A stretch of 64,000 nt of DNA from Puniceicoccales bacterium (GTDB lineage: Bacteria; Verrucomicrobiota; Verrucomicrobiia; Opitutales; UBA9783). The notes under the pieces are model-generated. The model did no database searches. It was not told the origin of the DNA and saw nothing but the letters and a program-made list of their open reading frames with translations. The position numbers and the translations under genes are program-made. Location of the stretch: NCBI GenBank assembly GCA_031258545.1, contig JAIRMU010000015.1:12761-76760 (forward strand). Reading direction: 5' to 3'. Shown one piece after another: positions 4,040-60,613 of the stretch (positions are counted from its first letter, which is position 1; every line of letters starts with the position of its first letter).

Positions 4040-4831
4040 ATGCCGGAAACAAATGTTAAAATTTGTGCAAGTCACGTCGGTAAAGCTTTTAGGAGAGATC
4101 ATCGTTTCATTAAAGTATTGGATGATATCTCTTTTTCCATACAAACGGGAGAATTTGTTGCGATTTTAGGACCCAGTGGATGCGGAAAATCTACGTTATT
4201 AAATATGGTAGCCGGTCTTGAGCCTTGCGAAGAGGGGCATATTATCGTTAATGAGTATCATACCGATCAACCTGAACGACATCGCATGATGATGTTTCAG
4301 GAAGCAGCCTTGTTTCCTTGGTATAATGTGCTCGGCAACGTTGTTTACGGTTTACGATTCAAGAAAGGGCTAACAAATGCCGAACGTAAGACAATTGCAT
4401 TGTACTATCTCCGCATGGTTGGGCTTGATCACTTTGAACGAGCGTACGTCCACGAACTTTCCGGAGGGATGAAGCAACGCGTTGCGTTGGCAAGGGCCTT
4501 GGCTCCAAATCCACAAATACTTCTCATGGACGAACCTTTCAGCGCACTTGATGCACTCACCTGCGAGCAGCTCTACAAAGATGTCCAAAAAATTTGGAAC
4601 ATGCAACACAAAACCGTGCTGCTCGTAACGCATAACGTACGCGAAGCAGTCGTGTTGACGCAACGCGTTATTGTGCTTTCCCAACGTCCAGGGAAAATTT
4701 TAAAAGATCTTCCCATTCAATTGCCTTATCCAAGATCTGTACACGATGTGTCGGTATCTGCACTTGCCAACGAGCTCATCAACGTATTGCACGAAAAAGA
4801 TGATGTTTATAATTACGCTTCTTGCACATGA
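4040..4831 (+). CDS. ABC transporter ATP-binding protein, NitT/TauT (TauB/SsuB-like) family
   Basis: Walker A GPSGCGKST, signature LSGGMKQRVALARALA, Walker B LLMDEPFSALD, H-loop VTHN. Confidence 0.92.
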   Translation: MPETNVKICASHVGKAFRRDHRFIKVLDDISFSIQTGEFVAILGPSGCGKSTLLNMVAGLEPCEEGHIIVNEYHTDQPERHRMMMFQEAALFPWYNVLGNVVYGLRFKKGLTNAERKTIALYYLRMVGLDHFERAYVHELSGGMKQRVALARALAPNPQILLMDEPFSALDALTCEQLYKDVQKIWNMQHKTVLLVTHNVREAVVLTQRVIVLSQRPGKILKDLPIQLPYPRSVHDVSVSALANELINVLHEKDDVYNYASCT

Positions 4832-5637
4832 AATGTCGATTGCTATTGCTGAATTTGAATGTCGTAAAATCTTTACTTAAAAAAATAGCTTACGTACTTG
4901 CCATCTTGTTTACATGGCAATGTGCATATATTTTAGGGGGATGTTCGGATTTAATTTTCCCCACACCTGTCCAAGTTGCCCGTTTTTTGTGGCACGCTTG
5001 CGCCGATGGAACGCTGATAAGTGCCATTTGGATGACGATCAAGCGTCTTATTTTAGGGTATAGTGTAAGCGTGTTAATAGGGATTCCCGTGGGTATGCTA
5101 TGCAGTCGATTTTATATTTTAAATGCCTTTGTGGGAAAACTTGTTTTAGGTCTCCAAACACTGCCCAGTATTTGCTGGGTACCGCTAACCCTGCTTTGGT
5201 TTGGCCAAACAGACCGCGCCATTCTATTTGTTGTTACCATGGGATCCCTATGGTCCTTGATCGCATCTACGGAATCGAGTGTGCGTCAAATTCCAAGTTT
5301 GTATATAAAGGCAGCACGTACTATGGGATCCCGAGGGATTGATTTGTGGGTAACGGTTATTTTTCCAGCCGCCTTACCCTTCATTATTACGGGTATGAAA
5401 CAGAGTTGGGCGTTCGCCTGGCGGTCTCTCATGTCGGCAGAAATTTACGTGAGCACGATCCATGGACTCAGTGTTGGGCAGCTCCTCCATTACGGAAGAG
5501 AAATGCAAGCCATGGATCAGGTCGTAGGTATTATTTTTGTTATCATTGCCATAGGCTTCATCGCCGAAAAAGTCATCTTTGCCAATCTGGAAAGAACTTT
5601 ACACAAACGATGGGGCTTTGTTAAATCCGCCAGCTAA
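4822..5637 (+). CDS. ABC transporter permease, NitT/TauT (TauC/SsuC-like) family
   Basis: Hydrophobic; LQTLPSICWVPL, EAA-loop KAARTMG, PAALPFIITG; overlaps the ATPase gene. Confidence 0.9.
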   Translation: MHMKCRLLLLNLNVVKSLLKKIAYVLAILFTWQCAYILGGCSDLIFPTPVQVARFLWHACADGTLISAIWMTIKRLILGYSVSVLIGIPVGMLCSRFYILNAFVGKLVLGLQTLPSICWVPLTLLWFGQTDRAILFVVTMGSLWSLIASTESSVRQIPSLYIKAARTMGSRGIDLWVTVIFPAALPFIITGMKQSWAFAWRSLMSAEIYVSTIHGLSVGQLLHYGREMQAMDQVVGIIFVIIAIGFIAEKVIFANLERTLHKRWGFVKSAS

Positions 5638-11854: not shown

Positions 11855-12559
11855 TCAAAAACGAGGATTCCGCGAATAAAAGCAAAAATTGCACGGCGTC
11901 TCGGTTACTTTCAATTTTAATCCAGGCTGCATGAGGGTCGTTCCAACGTACAATCCATGCCTACCTCCCGCAATGTACGGGAAATAATCATTACTACCTC
12001 CAAACCGCCGTCTTTCGGTCGCATAAAAAATACCGCTGGCAGCTGGGCTAGTTGTTGAATAAAGCTGCACATGTGAGTTAGTCGATTTTTTCAAATGTCC
12101 AATAACGAGTTGATTCAAGACACTTGCCGCTTCGACAATCTTTTTTGCAGCAGAGAACGTAACCAAGGCCCTATACAATGGATAATAAGCTAACTTTGTT
12201 CCACTGTTGCACTCATCCCCAACGTAATAAATGACTCCCCGACCCCCTTCAACCATACCGCGTTCTTGAATTAAGAGTAAGCAATTACCTACTTTCGGAA
12301 ACGTTGTACTTGCGTAAGTGAAACCGAGTGCACTTGATAAATCGGCAAATACGTAAAATTCGAGCGAATTATGCACATCTTTTTCCATGTATTTCGAAAA
12401 CGTTCTCAACTGCTCACTTAATTTGCTGTTTCCGGAAATTAAGTAATACTGATTCAGTTGTGTTAAAAAAAATTGCGTGCAAAAAGTCAAAAAAACACCG
12501 GCCATAACGCCTGCCAACATGATTTCAACTAAAGTAAATCCTCTCGATTTATTCTTCAT
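11855..12559 (-). CDS. Prepilin-type N-terminal cleavage/methylation protein (minor pilin/pseudopilin-like)
   Basis: Short basic leader MKNKSRG|FTLVE followed by a hydrophobic helix. Confidence 0.8.
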   Translation of the reverse strand: MKNKSRGFTLVEIMLAGVMAGVFLTFCTQFFLTQLNQYYLISGNSKLSEQLRTFSKYMEKDVHNSLEFYVFADLSSALGFTYASTTFPKVGNCLLLIQERGMVEGGRGVIYYVGDECNSGTKLAYYPLYRALVTFSAAKKIVEAASVLNQLVIGHLKKSTNSHVQLYSTTSPAASGIFYATERRRFGGSNDYFPYIAGGRHGLYVGTTLMQPGLKLKVTETPCNFCFYSRNPRF

Positions 12560-20107: not shown

Positions 20108-20380
20108 GTGGGACAGTCGGTTATTATAGACATAGCAAGTAAGGTAATGATGCTTGTGTTGATTTTGTCATTACCTTCCATTCTATTGGCAACCATTGTT
20201 GGGCTAGGGGTCAGTTTACTGCAAGCGCTTACGCAAGTCCAAGAACAAACTCTAAGTTTTGCGGTGCGATTGATTTGCATTACCCTTGTTCTGTTATTTT
20301 CGGCCCATTGGATTGGCAACGAACTTATAAAATATATAGAATCTATTTTTATCCAAATTCCGAGAATTACGGGTAAATAA
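20108..20380 (+). CDS. sctS: T3SS export apparatus SctS (EscS/YscS; FliQ homolog)
   Basis: LSLPSILLATIVGLGVSLLQALTQVQEQTLSFAVRL; first gene of an S-T-U cluster. Confidence 0.92.
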   Translation: MGQSVIIDIASKVMMLVLILSLPSILLATIVGLGVSLLQALTQVQEQTLSFAVRLICITLVLLFSAHWIGNELIKYIESIFIQIPRITGK

Positions 20381-21180
20381 TGAACCCATTGCACGATCTT
20401 CTGCCGATTAAAGACATTTTATTGTGCGCACTCATCTGCTGTACCCGCATGTTAGCTTTTTGTTCCACTTCCGTATTCTTTTCGTCACAATTCTTAACGG
20501 GTACGGGACGCAGGGCACTCATAGTTGCCTTATCCCTCATTCTTGTTCCCTTACTTCTTCCAAGCAGTTTAGAACATGCAAAAGCAGATGTATTAGATTG
20601 CTTAGGGTATATACTTAAAGAATCTATTCTGGGCATCATTTTGGGCTTGTTGAGTAATTTTATATTCTATGTGGCGCAAGGTGTAGGATTCGTCATCGAC
20701 ACGCAACGCGGGGCTTCTATGGCAAGTATGTTTGACCCCCTAAGTAATTCTCAAACGAGTCCTCTGGGCGACTTTTTAATGAAATTTACACTTATTCTGG
20801 CTTTGCTCAGCGGTGCCTTCTTAAAAATTATGGAAATGGTTTACGTAAGTTACTTAACATTTCCCATATTTAGTCCTTTGCCTCCATTGGAGCATTGGTT
20901 TCCAAATTTCTTTTTAACGGCTTTCGGGGATGATCTTTTCGCTACGCTCGCACTCCTCGGTGGCCCCGTGTTATTTATCCTATTTTTAGCAGAATTTGGG
21001 CTTGGCATGGTCACACGATTTGCGCCTCAACTCAACGTATTTTTTCTTGCGATGCCCATTAAAAGTGCCCTGGCCATGTTCTTTTTCATTTTGTATTTAA
21101 CCCACCTGGGAGAATATTTTGTAAATAATTTTGAACTGCACAATTTGGCTCAACGTTTCCTAAACGCACTGCGGCATTGA
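20380..21180 (+). CDS. sctT: T3SS export apparatus SctT (EscT/YscT; FliR homolog)
   Basis: KESILGIILG, GFVIDTQRGA, TSPLG, EFGLGMVTRFAPQLNVFFLAMPIKS. Confidence 0.92.
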   Translation: MNPLHDLLPIKDILLCALICCTRMLAFCSTSVFFSSQFLTGTGRRALIVALSLILVPLLLPSSLEHAKADVLDCLGYILKESILGIILGLLSNFIFYVAQGVGFVIDTQRGASMASMFDPLSNSQTSPLGDFLMKFTLILALLSGAFLKIMEMVYVSYLTFPIFSPLPPLEHWFPNFFLTAFGDDLFATLALLGGPVLFILFLAEFGLGMVTRFAPQLNVFFLAMPIKSALAMFFFILYLTHLGEYFVNNFELHNLAQRFLNALRH

Positions 21181-21184
21181 CATC

Positions 21185-22273
21185 ATGAGCGAAAAAACAG
21201 AGCAACCTACGCCTAAAAAAATTCGTGATGCAAGGAAAAAAGGTCAAGTTCCCAACAGCAAAGATGTAACGTCTACGGCACTCCTGATTGTTATCTTCAC
21301 TTATCTTGGATTATCGCGTGTTACCATTTTACAAACGCTGATGGATTTAATTGTCGCCCCATGCCAATTTTTTACACAACCCTTTGAAGACGCTTTTAAA
21401 GGTATGCTATGGGTTTGCTTCAAGGTTGGCCTTAAAGTGGTTCTTCCGTTAGTTTTGCTCGTGTTTATCACAGGTGTTGCGGCAAACGTATTGCAATTTG
21501 GACTTTTAATGTCCCCCGAAAGCATTATACCAAAATTGGATAAACTTAATCCCGTATCGAAGCTAAAGCAGATGTTTTCCATGAAAAATTTGATCGAATT
21601 TCTTAAATCGGCGGCAAAAATTACTTTTTTGGGAACCTTACTCTACTTTGTCATTCGAAATGTTCTAGATCCCCTCTTAAAAATTCCTTATGCAAGCCTC
21701 AGTAATTTTATAAACATTATGCCAAGTGTCTTAAAAACCTTTGCCTATAACGTCGGGTTTGCCTACATCGTGGTTGCTTTTCTGGATTTCATATTTCAAC
21801 GACACAATCACACCAAACAACTCATGATGTCCAAAGATGAAGTCAAGCGAGAGTACAAGGAAATGGAAGGGGATCCGACGATTAAGGGAAAACGCAAGCA
21901 GCTCCACAGAGAATTGCTACAGGGGGGGCCTGCGCAAAAGACAAAACGAGCTTCCGCACTCGTCACCAATCCTACGCACTATGCAATCGCGCTCTACTAC
22001 GACGAAATCACAGTTCCGTTACCCATTGTTTTGGCCAAAGGAACAGGCTTTCAGGCACAGATAATGAAGAAAGTTGCCATGGATTACGACATCCCCATCA
22101 TGGAAAATGTACCTCTTGCACACGCTTTGTACGACTTGGCGGAAATTGGTCGCTACATTCCTCGTGAACTTATCGAACCCGTGGCCGAAGTTATTCGTTG
22201 GGTACGCGACCAAAAACAACGTACCCAAGAGAGCATTGAAGTTTCTCAAGATCAATGGGATAAAATTTTTTAG
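21185..22273 (+). CDS. sctU: T3SS export apparatus switch protein SctU (EscU/YscU; FlhB homolog)
   Basis: MSEKTEQPTPKKIRDARKKGQV, MSKDEVKREYKEMEGDP, autocleavage motif NPTH. Confidence 0.94.
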   Translation: MSEKTEQPTPKKIRDARKKGQVPNSKDVTSTALLIVIFTYLGLSRVTILQTLMDLIVAPCQFFTQPFEDAFKGMLWVCFKVGLKVVLPLVLLVFITGVAANVLQFGLLMSPESIIPKLDKLNPVSKLKQMFSMKNLIEFLKSAAKITFLGTLLYFVIRNVLDPLLKIPYASLSNFINIMPSVLKTFAYNVGFAYIVVAFLDFIFQRHNHTKQLMMSKDEVKREYKEMEGDPTIKGKRKQLHRELLQGGPAQKTKRASALVTNPTHYAIALYYDEITVPLPIVLAKGTGFQAQIMKKVAMDYDIPIMENVPLAHALYDLAEIGRYIPRELIEPVAEVIRWVRDQKQRTQESIEVSQDQWDKIF

Positions 22274-24701: not shown

Positions 24702-25823
24702 TCAAAATGAAAATAAGCCTTTCTTTTTAACGGCCGTTTTGTCTCCCCGAATACGTTCCAGTAATTCCTTGGCAAATTGTGCTTTGGCCAAAGCTTCTTC
24801 CTCCGAAATCGTTCCTTTTACATACAAATCGAACAAATGACGATCCAAAGGAAGCATACCCAGTCCTTGATTGACTTCGATTTCCGTTTGAATGCGAAAT
24901 GTTTTGTTTTCCCGAATAAGATTGGAAATAGAATCGGCTCGCGTCATAATTTCAAAAGCCGCAACGCGTCCCTTGGAAGATTTTTTCCTGCATAATACTT
25001 GTGAAATAACCCCGATTAAATTGGATGCCAATTGCGTTCTCACAAGTTCCTTGCTGCCCTCCGCAAACGCATCTATGATGCGATCTACGGTACGCGTGGA
25101 TCCCGTTGTGTGCAAAGTCGACAGTACCAAATGGCCCGTTTCGGCAGCCGAAACGGCCGCTTCAATGGTCGCCAGGTCGCGCATTTCTCCAACCAAAATT
25201 ACGTCCGGATCCTGACGTAAAGCGCCCGTAATGGCCTTTTGGAATGATGGTGTATCCCTGCCCAATTCTCGTTGCGTAATGAGGCACTGATCCGGTTGGT
25301 AAAGGTATTCGATGGGATCTTCTATGGTAATAACGTGCTTGGCGTAATGCGTATTAATCCAATCGATCATTGCGGCCAGCGTGGTAGATTTTCCGGAACC
25401 CGTAGGTCCTGTAACCAACAGCAATCCCCGAGGACTATTTAACAAATCTTTAATTTTTTCCAAAGAGTGCGTCGGTAAGCCCAAATTGTCTAAAGATAAT
25501 GCATCGTCGTTAATGATACGCATGACAATACCGTATTTTTCACAGCTGGTAAATACGTTCACGCGCAAACGGACTTTGCGATTTTCAATTTCAGGATTGA
25601 TGGCAAAATCCACCTCCCGTGAGACTTTAAATGCCGCCGTCATTTTTTCAGGTATCAGTGCTTTCGCAAAACTTTCCACCTCTTCATCGGTTAAAATGGG
25701 AAGATCAAGTGGGCACATAAGTCCATCAACGCGCAATGTAGGAGGCTCATTAACCCTCAAATGAATATCGGAAGCCTGTTGATTAAGTGCAAATTGAATC
25801 AGGTTGTTTATGGTTAGGCTCAT
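24702..25823 (-). CDS. pilT: Type IV pilus retraction ATPase, PilT/PilU family
   Basis: ASDIHL, GPTGSGKSTT, TIEDPIE, ALRQDPDVILVGEMRD, AETGHLVLSTLHT. Confidence 0.9.
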   Translation of the reverse strand: MSLTINNLIQFALNQQASDIHLRVNEPPTLRVDGLMCPLDLPILTDEEVESFAKALIPEKMTAAFKVSREVDFAINPEIENRKVRLRVNVFTSCEKYGIVMRIINDDALSLDNLGLPTHSLEKIKDLLNSPRGLLLVTGPTGSGKSTTLAAMIDWINTHYAKHVITIEDPIEYLYQPDQCLITQRELGRDTPSFQKAITGALRQDPDVILVGEMRDLATIEAAVSAAETGHLVLSTLHTTGSTRTVDRIIDAFAEGSKELVRTQLASNLIGVISQVLCRKKSSKGRVAAFEIMTRADSISNLIRENKTFRIQTEIEVNQGLGMLPLDRHLFDLYVKGTISEEEALAKAQFAKELLERIRGDKTAVKKKGLFSF

Positions 25824-55129: not shown

Positions 55130-55588
55130 TTACGCTGGCATATTGGAATATACAGCGGTTTCTTGGGTATTTCCCTTGGTCCCCCCCTGCTGCAAGGTCT
55201 TCAAGTGTTGCACCCAGTATTCAAATGTATTTACGAAACACTCCAAAGATTTTTCAAAAATTTCATAGTCGCAATTCAAGAGGGGCGTATGTTGGACCAA
55301 TAAGACTTTATCACTGAACTGCTGGAGACCTAGAGTAGCACCATGCGTCTCCCTCCATTGCAAGTTTGCTTCCAGTAAGCGCGGATAAACGCGTTTAATT
55401 TGCCACTCATTTACATTTCCCAAACTAGCCTTAAAAGAAAAAACATTATCCGCCATATTGAGTTCTATGGTGACCAATAACGTCTCGTCAAACATTAAAA
55501 AACACTGATGTTTATCGTCCAACACCAACGGTTCCTCCAAATTTACTTCCGACGCTAACCGATTAAGCCACTGCTGAAATACCTGCAT
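55130..55588 (-). CDS. Class I T3SS chaperone, CesT/SycE family
   Basis: 152 aa; LVLDDKHQCFLMFDE, LLEANL.W.ET.GATLGL, C-terminal helix FEKSLECFVNTFEYW. Confidence 0.85.
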   Translation of the reverse strand: MQVFQQWLNRLASEVNLEEPLVLDDKHQCFLMFDETLLVTIELNMADNVFSFKASLGNVNEWQIKRVYPRLLEANLQWRETHGATLGLQQFSDKVLLVQHTPLLNCDYEIFEKSLECFVNTFEYWVQHLKTLQQGGTKGNTQETAVYSNMPA

Positions 55589-56548: not shown

Positions 56549-56893
56549 ATGGCGGCTTTAACAACGGAACAAACAAATTTTTTATATCTGCTCGCTTACA
56601 TGTATATGCAGCAGTCAAAATACACGCAAGCCTTGCAATTATTTCGAATTCTGCGTCTGCATACGGCGGAAAACATGCAAATAGCACTCACGTTGGCCTT
56701 TTGCTTGTACAAAGCGAGTCGTTTAGAAGAAGCGACCAAAGTTTTAAATTCTCTGGATACAAATAAACTCTCCACCCGTCAAAAAACTGCCTATTACTTT
56801 ATTAGCAGCAAGGTTTTGTGGGATCTAAAAAAAGTTACCGAATCGCGGGAAATGTTACACAGCTATTTAAAATGTAGAAAACTAAATTCATGA
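56549..56893 (+). CDS. YscY/SctY-like small TPR protein
   Basis: 114 aa, helical/TPR-like; LTTEQTNFLYLLAYMYMQQSKYTQA resembles the YscY N-terminus as recalled; 4-bp overlap with sctV, the yscY position in Ysc loci. Confidence 0.65.
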   Translation: MAALTTEQTNFLYLLAYMYMQQSKYTQALQLFRILRLHTAENMQIALTLAFCLYKASRLEEATKVLNSLDTNKLSTRQKTAYYFISSKVLWDLKKVTESREMLHSYLKCRKLNS

Positions 56894-58992
56894 GCTTTGT
56901 AGGATCCATAGAAAAAACCGTTGCCAAAGTTTCACGTTTCAATGACGTTTTATTGGCCGTCTTGGTGGTCATGATCATTGCTTTGATGATCGTTCCCGTT
57001 CCAAGTTACATCCTAGATGGCCTCATAGCACTCAATTTCACCATCTCCATCATCCTCCTCATGATGGCACTCTACATCCCCAACGTGCTTGCGTTTTCCA
57101 CATTCCCCAGCATGTTATTGTTCACAACGCTCTTTCGATTGGCCCTCAGCATCACAACCACGCGCATGATTTTGCTGTACGCCGATGCCGGTGAAATTAT
57201 TTTCACGTTCGGGCAATTTGTTGTGGGAGGTAATTTCGTTGTTGGAGCCGTTATCTTTTTGATACTTTTAATCGTCCAATTTTTGGTCATCACCAAAGGT
57301 GCCGAACGTGTTGCCGAAGTGGCAGCCAGGTTTACTTTGGATGCGATGCCGGGAAAACAAATGAGCATCGATGCCGATATGCGGGCCGGTACCATTGATA
57401 TGGATGAAGCTAAGCGCCGACGCAGCGATCTTGAACGAGAAAATCAACTTTACGGCGCCATGGATGGTGCCATGAAATTCGTCAAAGGAGATGCCATTGC
57501 GGGACTCATTATTACCGCCGTCGACATCATTGCCGGACTGATTATTGGGGTTACCCAAAAAGGGATGGAATTGCAAAAAGCGCTTACGACGTATTCCATT
57601 TTAACCATTGGAGATGGTCTCGTTTCCCAAATTCCCGCACTGCTGATTTCTATTACGGCCGGTATTATCGTAACAAAGGTAGGAGCCGCCGATGGAACTA
57701 TTTTGGGGCGCGACATCGGCAAACAAGTCCTCGGACAACCCAAAGCGCTGCTCATAGGTGGCTTCATGGTCGTTGGAATGATGCTCATGCCCGGCTTTCC
57801 CAAAGTTCCTTTCCTGATTTTGGCATCCATGGTCCTTGTTGTGGGGTACACGCTCGTTAAAACTCGCGGACAAACGGGAAAACCAAAACGTCAACATTCT
57901 CCCATGTCTCCCGCAGCCAATCCCCCACGTAAAGCTCCGGAAGTTACCAACGAGTCCGAAGACTCCGGAGATGAATTTTCGGTCACCATCCCACTCATAT
58001 TGGATGTAGCGCGTTCCGTTGAAGAAACCATCGAGCCCGACGTTTTGAATGAGCAACTTATTCAAATTCGTAAGGCTTTGTATCACGATCTAGGCGTTCC
58101 GTTTCCCGGGATTCACCTGAGATTCAACGAAAGTTTGGAAGATAATTGTTACAGAATTTTGCTGAGTGAAGTTCCCATTAGCCAAGGTAAATTGATGGGG
58201 ACGCACGTTTTGGTGCGCGAATCAAAGGAAAACCTTGACATCTTGGGGATTAATATTGTTGAAGCCGAAAACTTTTTACCCAATATCCCGACTTTGTGGG
58301 CAGCCGCCTCCGACATAGAAATATTAAATACGGCCAACGTTGCCTACATGCGTACGCCACAAATTCTCACCTACCATTTATCCTTCATTTTAAAAAAATA
58401 TGCGGGTGAATTTTTGGGCATTCAGGAATGTAAGTTTTTATTGGAAAATATGGAACAGGATTTTCCTGAAATTGTACGCGAAGTACAGCGCGTTTTACCC
58501 ATACAAAAAATTACGGACATTTTCCAAAGACTAGTGCAGGAAGAAATTTCCATTAGAAATTTAAAACTTATTTTACAGTGTTTAATCGACTGGGGACAAA
58601 AAGAAAAAGAGCCCGTTTTATTGGCTGACTACGTACGATCCAATTTACGCCGTTACATCAGTTATAAATTCAGCGAAGGCCGCAACGTCCTTTCCGTTTA
58701 CTTACTGGATCCACAAGTTGAAGAAGTCGTCCGCAAAGCGGTTAGACAAACTTCTGCAGGAAGTTATCTTGCACTTGACCCGCCGACCGCCAAAAAGCTG
58801 GTCAAAGCCATTAAAGATGAAGTGGGCGAAATCCATCTTTTATCCCACCGTCCGGTTCTTCTTACATCCATGGATATCCGACGCTACATTCGAAAATTGA
58901 TTGAATTAGAAATCTATGATTTACCCGTTTTGTCACACCAAGAACTTACGGAAGAAATAACCATTCGCCCGCTCGGTAGGGTTCACATATAG
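56890..58992 (+). CDS. sctV: T3SS export gate protein SctV (LcrD/EscV; FlhA homolog)
   Basis: FPSMLLFTTLFRLALSITTTR, GAERVAEVAARFTLDAMPGKQMSIDAD, GAMDGAMKFVKGDAIAG, IGDGLVSQIPAL, EISIRNL, LPVLSHQEL. Confidence 0.95.
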   Translation: MSFVGSIEKTVAKVSRFNDVLLAVLVVMIIALMIVPVPSYILDGLIALNFTISIILLMMALYIPNVLAFSTFPSMLLFTTLFRLALSITTTRMILLYADAGEIIFTFGQFVVGGNFVVGAVIFLILLIVQFLVITKGAERVAEVAARFTLDAMPGKQMSIDADMRAGTIDMDEAKRRRSDLERENQLYGAMDGAMKFVKGDAIAGLIITAVDIIAGLIIGVTQKGMELQKALTTYSILTIGDGLVSQIPALLISITAGIIVTKVGAADGTILGRDIGKQVLGQPKALLIGGFMVVGMMLMPGFPKVPFLILASMVLVVGYTLVKTRGQTGKPKRQHSPMSPAANPPRKAPEVTNESEDSGDEFSVTIPLILDVARSVEETIEPDVLNEQLIQIRKALYHDLGVPFPGIHLRFNESLEDNCYRILLSEVPISQGKLMGTHVLVRESKENLDILGINIVEAENFLPNIPTLWAAASDIEILNTANVAYMRTPQILTYHLSFILKKYAGEFLGIQECKFLLENMEQDFPEIVREVQRVLPIQKITDIFQRLVQEEISIRNLKLILQCLIDWGQKEKEPVLLADYVRSNLRRYISYKFSEGRNVLSVYLLDPQVEEVVRKAVRQTSAGSYLALDPPTAKKLVKAIKDEVGEIHLLSHRPVLLTSMDIRRYIRKLIELEIYDLPVLSHQELTEEITIRPLGRVHI

Positions 58993-59322
58993 GGTCATTT
59001 TCACGACAAGCATAAGATTATTTACAAGAATTATGTAAGATTCCTAGCCGGTCTATGCAAAAAGATGATAGGGTGCAAAATCGCTGCCAGAAAACCAAGA
59101 TATTGGGATAATGTCATCGTATCCTTCCCCATAGACATTATCATCAATGCGCTTATTCTGTCCTTGAGTCGCATTTACTTACTTCGCCCCGGAATCAAAT
59201 CTATAACCCATATGCCTCAATCCATAAACGGCTTTTATGCTTTATAATCCACATGGGCTTAATGCTCCATTTCAGAAAATAAAATATGTAAGAGAAAGAA
59301 TCCGAATAAATGAGCAGTGAGT

Positions 59323-60456
59323 CTAATAATATCGATTTTCCCAGAGAACAGTGTTAGTAGGATTTGTTGAACCGGGACATTCGGGAAAGAGGCAAGCCAT
59401 ACCGTTCTTATTCCTATTAAGTATAATATACCTTTCGCCAATCGTTGATTTAAACTTAAGATAACACTTGTTCCAATCTGCAGTATTTGGGGTGATGCCG
59501 AACAATGCTATTCCAGCACCATCAAGTCCATCAGCTTCCGTCATCCAATTTTCTATGTCGTAACAGTAGGCAGCATTCCCCAATGGCCTATGATTCCATT
59601 TTCTTGTTAAAGGATTCATTAAATGACTGGGTACAAATGGGCACAATTTAGCCGGTATATCATCCCAGTCGGCGTTCGGAGGGAATTCATTAAAGATAAG
59701 ATAGTAAGTGCGGCAAGCCTTCATGATACCCAGAGTATCTTCGAGGGTAGAATTCAGTCGAAAATCTTCGGTGGCTTTTCTAAAGCCCGGAATGGCAATG
59801 GCGGTAAGAATGCCTACAATGCACAGGGTGACAACGACCTCGATGAGGGTAAATCCGTTTCGGTTGGCGAATGGATGTTTTGACGTCCGGCAAAATTCAG
59901 ATGCCAGGAAAGGAACCGACGTCCTGGAATATCCCGTTGCTTGACCGAACCCCAATGCCCTACTATCCTCTGCTGCCTGACCAGATCCCGACTGAGGACA
60001 TCCCGGATTAGAATATCCCGCTGCGATTAAAAGGTCAGAGGTCTTGGTATTTCGGTGAAAGCCGTTTCGACCTACGGACGAACATCTTAACCCTCGGTTC
60101 GGTTCAGGCCTTCGTTCAAGTCCCAACCCCCGGATCGGCTTTAGGTTTCGACCTAGTTCCGATCTCCAGACTGGTTCCAGGTCTCGGCTTGATCCAGACC
60201 GTTGTTCCAGATCTAATCTCGGGCTTGACCCCAACTTTCTATTTGGTGCCGATCTTCGGCCGTATTCCAACCCGTGGTTCGGTTCAAATCCTAATTCCCA
60301 GACAGGCCCTAGGGCTCGATTTAGTTCCAACCGTTGATTTAGATCCAATGTTTGGATCGGTCTCGATTTCTGATTTGGTTTTAATTCCCGGCTTAGTCTT
60401 AATTCACAGACGGATTTCCACTCTCGACTTAGCTCCGATCCTCGACCGGCTCCCAA
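59323..60456 (-). CDS. Pilin/pseudopilin (176-aa mature part from 59853) preceded in-frame by a long repeat-encoded leader; true start uncertain
   Basis: NRNG|FTLIEVVVTLCIVGILTAIAIPGF class III signal. The frame is open from 60570. Candidate starts: TTG 60456, TTG 59955, or the repeat-dependent GTG 60574. Confidence 0.75.
   Translation of the reverse strand: MGAGRGSELSREWKSVCELRLSRELKPNQKSRPIQTLDLNQRLELNRALGPVWELGFEPNHGLEYGRRSAPNRKLGSSPRLDLEQRSGSSRDLEPVWRSELGRNLKPIRGLGLERRPEPNRGLRCSSVGRNGFHRNTKTSDLLIAAGYSNPGCPQSGSGQAAEDSRALGFGQATGYSRTSVPFLASEFCRTSKHPFANRNGFTLIEVVVTLCIVGILTAIAIPGFRKATEDFRLNSTLEDTLGIMKACRTYYLIFNEFPPNADWDDIPAKLCPFVPSHLMNPLTRKWNHRPLGNAAYCYDIENWMTEADGLDGAGIALFGITPNTADWNKCYLKFKSTIGERYIILNRNKNGMACLFPECPGSTNPTNTVLWENRYY
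60062..60440 (-). repeat. Degenerate ~18-bp tandem repeat (about 20 units) encoding hexapeptides like EPNRGL/ELNRAL
   Basis: Units such as CCCTCGGTTCGGTTCAGG and CCCGTGGTTCGGTTCAAA on the + strand; 6-residue periodicity in the translation; boundaries approximate. Confidence 0.7.
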
Positions 60457-60514
60457 CGGTTGACCGGGGTCCTTTAGCTCCGGAACGACATCGGCGATTA
60501 AGCGCTCAGACGCC

Positions 60515-60570
60515 TGAGGTCTTGAGGTCTTGAGGTCTTGAGGTCTTGAGGTCTTGAGGTCTTGAGGTCT
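60515..60570 (+). repeat. Perfect simple sequence repeat (TGAGGTCT)7
   Basis: Seven exact 8-bp units counted directly. Confidence 0.97.
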
Positions 60571-60583
60571 TCACAATGAAGTT

Positions 60584-60613
60584 ATTCTATCTTTCCCCAC
60601 CGACCTCTGTCAA
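60584..60613 (-). promoter_or_regulatory. Putative sigma-70 promoter facing the 8-bp repeat and pilin ORF
   Basis: Minus strand: TTGACA-N18-TAGAAT, then 9 nt to the GTG at 60574. Confidence 0.7.

Follow-up and report, generated by a model that had tools for sequence, protein, structure and literature searches.

Phase variation by slippage in repeats is textbook biology in a few human pathogens, and stochastic, repeat-driven switching of pili between on and off is known from the poly-G tract of Neisseria pilC, the TA repeats of Haemophilus hif and the poly-C tract of Bordetella fim. To our knowledge, none of these pilus switches combines an octameric repeat with a leader that is translated over hundreds of codons, and repeat-slippage phase variation has hardly been documented in Verrucomicrobiota or in uncultured host-associated bacteria. 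The locus we investigated is a type IV pilin-like gene, headed by a perfect octanucleotide array, on the minus strand of a 64,000-nucleotide (nt) stretch of DNA from a Puniceicoccales bacterium (Verrucomicrobiota; GenBank assembly GCA_031258545.1, contig JAIRMU010000015.1, positions 12,761 to 76,760); we refer to this whole stretch as the window, and all coordinates are window positions. The closest described systems are the opa genes of Neisseria, which carry CTCTT repeats in the coding region of the leader peptide (PMC3960869), and neuO of the Escherichia coli K1 prophage CUS-3, in which (AAGACTC)n starts 2 nt after the ATG and only multiples of three units give the ON state (PMC3046976). 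Known prepilin leaders have fewer than 10 residues in type IVa pilins and 15-30 residues in type IVb pilins (PMC3927602). The array in the window is probably a slippage-driven translational phase-variation switch for one member of a multi-copy pilin family, and the switch is now OFF.

The array is preceded on the minus strand by a sigma-70-type promoter (60584..60613), which consists of a -35 hexamer TTGACA at 60613-60608, an 18-nt spacer and a -10 hexamer TAGAAT at 60589-60584. An earlier reading of the window, made from the letters alone and hereafter called the sequence-only reading, had described this site as near-consensus; it matches 11 of 12 positions and is the best sigma-70-like site in a promoter scan of 59000-61600. 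The same scan found no further promoter-like site on the minus strand between the array and the pilin. The -10 hexamer is followed by the 9-nt discriminator AACTTCATT and a GTG start codon at 60574-60572 (together 60572..60583), a spacing that is kept in the related cassettes described below. No Shine-Dalgarno sequence is present before this GTG; together with the constant distance from the -10 hexamer, this suggests that the mRNA is probably leaderless or nearly so.

The GTG runs directly into the octanucleotide array (60515..60571, minus strand), which can be written as GTG-(AAGACCTC)7-A or, shifted by one letter, as A-(AGACCTCA)7, with (AGACCTCA)7 at 60570-60515 and GGCGTCTGAGCGCTTAATC directly 3' of it. 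For 60515-60571 Tandem Repeats Finder gives a period of 8, 7.1 copies, 100% matches and a score of 114, with no similar array in the rest of the 64 kb. Both the sequence and this result agree with the sequence-only reading, which had placed the GTG 9 nt after the -10 hexamer and ahead of seven octamers. A two-unit probe allowing up to two mismatches had six matches, all of them within the array, compared with 0.01 expected from shuffles. The octamer unit is free of stops in all three forward frames and encodes repeats of KTSRPQDL. The conserved flank on the 3' side, GGCGTCTGAGCGCTTAATCGCCGATGTCGTTCCGGAGCTAAAGGAC (60470..60514, minus strand), is homologous in related loci; in the pilin frame it reads ASERLIADVVPELKD, and in the wrong frames it holds the stops TGA (60508-60506) and TAA (60500-60498).

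With seven units, translation from the GTG yields VKTSRPQDLKTSRPQDLKTSGV and then meets the TGA at 60508-60506, which gives a peptide of 22 residues. The pilin frame is open for 415 codons, from 60570 to its stop at 59323, and a TGA (60573-60571) stands immediately upstream of it. When we simulated other unit numbers, the GTG joined the pilin frame at 2, 5, 8, 11, 14 and 17 units (at 2, 5, 8, 11 or 14 units its frame runs for more than 400 codons into the prepilin), and every other number led to a peptide of 6 to 46 residues. Seven units thus leave the GTG out of the pilin frame, and the window allele is OFF, one unit away from the ON state at eight. The frame arithmetic of the sequence-only reading, namely the end of the seven-unit frame at this TGA, the opening of the pilin frame at 60570 just behind a TGA, and the restoration of the frame by eight or five units, is reproduced by the sequence and the simulation.

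The gene downstream of the array had been called pilin-like, and family models and pilin-type matches support this description. The prepilin cleavage site and the mature type IV pilin-like protein occupy 59323..59856 on the minus strand; the mature part has 176 amino acids (aa) and ends in ENRYY, with the stop of the gene at 59325-59323. The cleavage motif is RNG|FTLIEVVV, with the glycine encoded by GGA at 59856-59854 and the phenylalanine by TTT at 59853-59851; the cleavage and methylation motif G|F-x-x-x-E is followed in the pilin frame by a hydrophobic helix. The N-terminal methylation motif at codons 236-260 of the open frame is recognized by PF07963 (E = 6e-6, 26 bits, cut-off 21.2) and TIGR02532 (29 bits, cut-off 16.3). 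In the AlphaFold model (pLDDT 76) a long N-terminal helix (37-88) carries a beta-sheet head of four strands. The top Foldseek matches are to PilA1 of C. difficile (probability 0.97, target-normalised TM-score 0.56-0.61, weak E-values of 0.06-0.25), and a profile search against the PDB matches PilE and PilA; the best structural and sequence matches are type IV major pilins, with E-values that are weak for the head. The nearest homologs of the pilin are all found in metagenome-assembled genomes (MAGs) named Puniceicoccales by NCBI. Across paralogs, the 62 codons from G(-1) to residue 61 of the mature N-terminal region show 408, 213 and 803 substitutions at the first, second and third codon positions, with 529 synonymous and 473 non-synonymous differences. 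As judged from these codon patterns, the mature pilin is under purifying selection and is a functional protein.

The sequence-only reading overlooked the length of the leader between the array and the cleavage site. In the ON form the product of the window gene would have a leader of 238 residues before the cleavage site (~240 residues if counted from the conserved GTG start), which is far outside the range of known pilin leaders. This predicted leader has an isoelectric point of 10.3 and no hydrophobic segment. There is no short basic leader of <10 or 15-30 residues that begins with Met; the nearest in-frame start is a TTG at -33. The number of open codons upstream of the G|F site is 238 in the window and, in the related loci L003, L200 and L198b, 244, 369 and 126, respectively; for L199 and L198a we have lower bounds of at least 399 and at least 204. 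In the window, L003 and L198b the open pilin frame ends exactly at the array, and in every locus for which the array start is available no stop separates it from the cleavage site. The other two frames contain 185 stops in 3570 codons (5.2%), and an open run of 238 codons would be expected by chance with a probability of ~3e-6. Both wrong frames stop 2-5 codons past the array in five of six loci, and within the distal part of the window leader the pilin frame has no stop, compared with 16 and 11 in the other two frames. In paralogous leaders the substitutions are spread evenly over the three codon positions (50/50/57); of the differences, 31 are synonymous and 92 non-synonymous. This evenness, next to the constraint on the mature part, suggests that the leader is selected for readability and not for its protein sequence; purifying selection is seen on the mature part only.

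If the pilin were instead expressed constitutively from an internal start, either TTG 59955, which would leave a leader of 33 residues, or TTG 60456, then the array would lie in an untranslated or separately translated 5' region and would not gate expression. Two annotation pipelines have chosen such starts: the public call from JGI has 210 aa from TTG 59955 (P0012), and that from NCBI has 377 aa from TTG 60456 (P0015), neither of them beginning at the conserved GTG. A GAGGA at 59970-59966, 10 nt upstream of TTG 59955, could serve this start, and TTG codons recur across the hexapeptide repeats of the leader. However, neither TTG is positionally conserved in the paralogs; the nearest in-frame ATG, GTG or TTG upstream of the cleavage site varies from -15 to -93 codons among loci, the stretch from array to cleavage site in L001 lacks an in-frame start altogether, and no start codon near the cleavage site was found to be conserved among paralogs. 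For some of these paralogs PGAP 'partial' proteins of 539 and 561 aa include the leader. An internal start would also leave unexplained why 238 to 369 codons are stop-free back to the array, why the wrong frames are closed right after it and why the GTG keeps its 9-nt distance from the -10 hexamer, and it would have to do without a promoter-like site between array and pilin. We therefore consider an array-independent, constitutive pilin improbable.

Long leaders are not a general property of this pilin family. Distant members that share the signatures YYL(I/V)FNE(F/W)P and NRYY have ordinary leaders (e.g., MMRLKHKKSCG|FTLVE or MKKNKA|FTLIE), and in the wider family a leader is an M followed by 5-17 residues. 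The window has a second prepilin gene (11855-12559, minus strand), whose ATG lies six codons before the motif. This suggests that the long-leader cassette is a derived add-on in one subclade. The second prepilin also provides an internal control: the genome encodes normal prepilins too.

The leader is composed of recognizable parts. Its distal portion (60085..60469, minus strand) is a degenerate 18/36-nt repeat that encodes basic, hydrophilic hexapeptides of the approximate form x-R/E-L-x-P-x. The autocorrelation of this portion peaks at lags of 36, 18 and 54 (z = 9.3, 6.1 and 6.0) and has no peak at 8; we therefore reject the idea that the distal leader is an old, mutated octamer array. It is followed by the junction of two tandem leader units (60016..60084, minus strand), made up of CSSVGRNGF, which is a copy of the leader end, HRNT, one AAGACCTC, and TSDLLIAAG, which is a copy of the 3' flank of the array. 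The proximal leader unit (59857..60015, minus strand), in which TTG 59955-59953 and its GAGGA are located, is 93% identical to that of L198a. Among loci, leaders comprise one to three such units, and the internal ones end in K-Y/H-P-S-V-G-R-N-G-F, a copy of the cleavage region, which is followed by one octamer and a copy of the array flank. Ten internal modules align with pilin-proximal leader ends and array flanks, and self and cross BLAST show that homologous modules mostly share their reading frame. The alignment of these modules with a leader end, one octamer and an array flank suggests that they arose through tandem duplications of the leader unit. The notion that the 'PSVGRNGF-HRNTKTSD' modules are decayed copies of the promoter is unsupported by a MAFFT alignment.

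The whole arrangement recurs in related Puniceicoccales loci. The shared module reads AAAACCCTTGAC(A/G), 17-18 nt, TA(C/G/T)AAT, exactly 9 nt, GTG, (AAGACCTC)n and the flank, so that the promoter has the form TTGAC(A/G)-N17/18-TA(C/G/T)AAT; in the pilin frame the flank reads (K/A)S(E/K)RLIA..VPELxD. We found the cassette in L003, L020, L022, L063, L085, L198b and L200, and its array and flank part in L001 and L072. Both promoter hexamers and the surrounding ~60 nt are conserved in L003, L022, L063, L085 and L198b; in L020 and L200, whose contigs break off at this point, the -10 side alone is retained. The spacing between the -10 hexamer and the GTG measures exactly 9 nt in the window and in all seven of these cassettes (L003, L020, L022, L063, L085, L198b and L200). 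The GTG is in frame in L200, and it is the called start of the protein P0007. The 3' flank of the array is homologous in L003, L198b, L200, L072, L020 and L001.

The copies differ in unit number and in phase. Next to the seven units of the window (OFF), L003 has two units (OFF), L198b five (OFF) and L200 twelve (ON, with an open reading frame (ORF) of 532 aa from the GTG); for P0007 the protein sequence VKTS(RPQDLKTS)4RPQ implies ~14 units in the ON state. In total, two copies are ON (L200 and P0007) and three are OFF (the window, L003 and L198b). Four further arrays run into a contig end, with at least 7 units in L063, at least 11 in L001, at least 13 in L022 and at least 14 in L072; contig breaks within arrays are only suggestive as a sign of length variation. 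Since the flank differs by 1-7 nt between loci, the ON state falls on 2/5/8 units in the window, on 1/4/7 in L003 and on 3/6/9/12 in both L198b and L200. Five arrays together have at least 57 units that are free of substitutions, whereas the adjoining leaders differ by 7-25%. Homogeneous arrays beside diverged leaders are a signature of ongoing slippage. Judging from runs of neighbouring NCBI accession numbers, each MAG has at least two to three paralogs. The sequence-only reading had proposed a contingency locus for a pilin, and this proposal gains support from the recurrence of the cassette, the varied unit numbers, the presence of ON and OFF states, the open leader frame and the lack of a conserved alternative start.

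The arrays of L020 and L085 are interrupted and that of L002 is lost, which suggests that some copies are stabilised or decaying. In L002 (4520-5260; GCA_031283895.1) the cassette itself has decayed: the -10 hexamer TATAAT runs straight into 1.5 octamers and no GTG is present, and the ORFs of the leader (4552-5001) and the pilin are in different frames, with an overlap of 160 nt that is open in both.

Outside this lineage the octamer is widespread. GTDB species genomes contain exact (AGACCTCA)3 at more than 113 sites, where AAGACCCC and AAGCCCC units are often interspersed. Such arrays are concentrated in a single MAG each of Acidobacteriota (JADZCN01) and Cyanobacteriota (JAIEMQ01), with dozens in each, and they also occur in Paenibacillus (17 units), Tatumella (12 units) and Caballeronia (7 units). 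At the octamer sites in unrelated genomes no prepilin motif was found within 1.5 kb downstream; in some organisms the octamer lies in frame inside a Ser/Thr kinase, an ABC-F protein (Uup) or AlgI (P0013, P0019, P0020, P0024). A specificity of the octamer for pilins is thus rejected by the arrays found across unrelated phyla without pilin context, and the diagnostic feature is the whole cassette, not the array alone.

These observations bear on a further explanation, according to which the window gene is a decaying, permanently inactive paralog, its array a neutral microsatellite and its out-of-frame state a null mutation. The many arrays in unrelated phyla, including the in-frame insertions into housekeeping genes, would fit a neutral repeat; the arrayless L002, with leader and pilin in different frames, and L003, which is OFF with only two units, would fit decay. 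Nevertheless, the mature ORF is intact and its N-terminal 62 codons are under purifying selection across paralogs, the promoter, the GTG spacing and the out-of-frame stops are conserved, the arrays are perfectly homogeneous while the flanks diverge, and ON alleles exist. The intact frame of the 238-codon leader in an OFF allele would also be unexpected if the leader were never translated. A dying paralog is, in our judgement, quite improbable for the window gene.

Under the frameshift switch that we favour, the strong promoter would start the mRNA at or just before GUG 60574, and the transcript would probably be leaderless. Initiating at this GUG, on a leaderless or near-leaderless message, the ribosome would run straight into the (AAGACCTC)n array. 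During replication, slipped-strand mispairing would add or remove 8-nt units, presumably changing the unit number at this locus within the population at high frequency, and one third of the unit numbers would join the GUG to the pilin frame. In the two wrong registers the ribosome would halt 2-5 codons past the array, with a product of 22 residues in the case of seven units. In the ON register, translation would continue through the ~240-codon leader (array, flank, degenerate hexapeptides and duplicated leader unit) and reach the class III signal RNG|FTLIE, where prepilin peptidase would cut despite the length of the leader, leaving an ordinary mature pilin for assembly into a pilus by type IV machinery. 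With the whole leader removed, the repeat length would have no effect on the mature pilin. Initiation at internal TTG codons, including 59955 (the JGI start) or 60456 (the NCBI start), may occur at a low level, and expression of this allele may then be leaky.

A refinement that does not exclude this switch would place the decision at the transcript. In that case the early stop uncouples translation from transcription over the leader of ~650 nt, and Rho termination or decay of the mRNA follows. Selection of the leader for openness and not for sequence would be in line with such a polarity effect, and so would the length of the leader in most paralogs, the wrong-frame stops immediately past the array and the lack of an internal promoter. 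However, short leaders exist (66 residues in P0007, at least 66 in L001), and the leader mRNA is richer in G than in C (the GC skew of the plus strand is negative), which is atypical of Rho-utilisation sites. We give this transcript-level version only a very slim chance.

Several points weigh against the frameshift switch. All comparisons of unit number are between paralogous loci or different MAGs; no second assembly of the window locus turned up. L003 is OFF with two units, L020 and L085 are interrupted and L002 is arrayless, so that some copies look locked or decaying. The GTG, which has no Shine-Dalgarno sequence, is a putative start; prepilin leaders of 66 to 400 residues have no precedent, and their cleavage is a prediction. 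TTG 59955, with GAGGA 10 nt upstream, could give expression that is independent of the array, and arrays of this octamer are also found in many unrelated genomes outside any pilin context. These points notwithstanding, we regard the switch as the likely function of the array.

The distribution of the cassette also suggests exchange between loci. On one small contig, L198 (1-2776; JGI 3300042593), two pilin genes of the family are arranged in tandem. The second gene, L198b, has the five-unit OFF cassette. The proximal leader of the first gene is 93% and the flank of the second 89% identical to that of the window, which suggests that leaders are recombinational mosaics. In L072 (1-2130; Puniceicoccales MAG Pcl387_bin165) an array of at least 14 units, the flank and a hexapeptide leader continue in frame into a non-pilin ORF of 647 aa, which is Cys-rich, has a hydrophobic N-terminal segment and gave no Pfam or NCBIfam match. 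Two homologs of this ORF (P0017 and P0018) begin at the hydrophobic segment, and pieces of the segment are found inside some pilin leaders. The fusion and these pieces suggest that the cassette behaves as a mosaic, exchangeable module. A scan of metagenomes for the promoter/GTG/array junction had zero matches, the lineage being absent from the collection, and a protein-guided scan returned only generic prepilins, over ~30-130 residues around the N-terminal helix and mostly with 26-50% identity.

A broader and more speculative possibility, which we consider rather unlikely, is that promoter, GUG, array and long variable spacer ORF form a modular cassette that recombination spreads among unrelated surface-protein genes, where it replaces the native starts. 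Its targets would be the two to three or more scattered pilin paralogs per genome and the non-pilin family of 550-650 aa represented by L072. The ON prepilins would then have the longest leaders known (66 to >400 residues) and would still be processed by the peptidase, and the spacer would act as a frame-sensitive polarity fuse that tightens the OFF state.

In the window the pilin gene stands alone between sctV (56890-58992) and tRNA-Phe (61513-61588). Type III secretion genes are scattered over the window (SctT and SctU at 20380-22273, a CesT-like chaperone at 55130-55588 and SctV at 56890-58992), and a PilT-like T2SSE ATPase is encoded at 24702-25823; together they suggest a host-associated lifestyle. 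In L199 a GAF-T2SSE ATPase adjoins the pilin paralog. A Pfam scan of 33 of the 55 window ORFs of at least 150 aa found no peptidase A24. Rfam finds only tRNAs, and no RNA family in 59000-61500. The ~900 nt between the promoter and tRNA-Phe (60614-61512) have no credible ORF and no Rfam match; within them, 60679-60811 is the only part with a resemblance elsewhere, namely to the sequence preceding the L198b cassette (79% identity across 134 nt). A copy of the 3' 42-49 nt of tRNA-Phe (61513-61588, plus strand), from the anticodon loop to the 3' end, is found with ~90% identity at 63336-63384 (plus strand), 1.75 kb downstream of the tRNA. The direct repeat brackets only an EryCIII/UDPGT-like glycosyltransferase gene (61876-63279, minus strand) and resembles the att scar that a small integrated islet would leave, with no integrase present.

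Scattered pilin genes that each have their own octamer switch would allow combinatorial variation of surface filaments. The long leader challenges the assumption that prepilin leaders are short and bears on substrate recognition by prepilin peptidase. It also exposes an annotation problem, in that the calls of 210 aa and 377 aa both fail to reflect the likely biology.

Among known systems, type IVa and IVb prepilins have in common with the pilin the G|FTLIE motif, the hydrophobic alpha-1 helix and, as far as the model with its weak matches for the head predicts, an architecture of helix and beta-sheet head. It differs from them in that the 33 codons before the site contain no start codon and that leaders counted from the conserved start have 66 to 400 residues. 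The pilus switches of pilC, hif and fim rely on tracts of mono- or dinucleotides, which in some cases lie in promoters, whereas an octamer is used here. The likeness to opa is closer. In both systems the repeat unit is not a multiple of three and lies near the 5' end of the gene, in the part encoding a leader that maturation removes (as predicted here), slippage shifts the frame (presumably here as well), and a multi-copy family of surface proteins has a switch for each copy. Here, however, the unit is an octamer and not a pentamer, the leader is of class III with 66 to 400 residues and not a Sec signal peptide, the start codon is followed at once by the repeat, and the system is found in a verrucomicrobium. 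With neuO the locus shares an array that opens the ORF (2 nt after the ATG in neuO, 0 nt after the GTG here) and nearly identical units, AAGACTC and AAGACCTC, which are one C apart; both units are stop-free and encode hydrophilic peptides, RLKTQDS in neuO and KTSRPQDL here. The neuO unit is a heptamer, in contrast to the 8 nt of AAGACCTC, which sets the array apart from the heptameric poly-psi variable-number tandem repeats. The heptads of neuO stay on the mature enzyme, an O-acetyltransferase, and tune its activity, whereas the repeat peptide of the pilin is predicted to be cleaved off with the leader. From opa and neuO this locus differs in its unit of 8 nt, in a leader that is of class III, extremely long and unconstrained and that is built from tandem units, in a start that is probably leaderless, and in the phylum to which the organism belongs.

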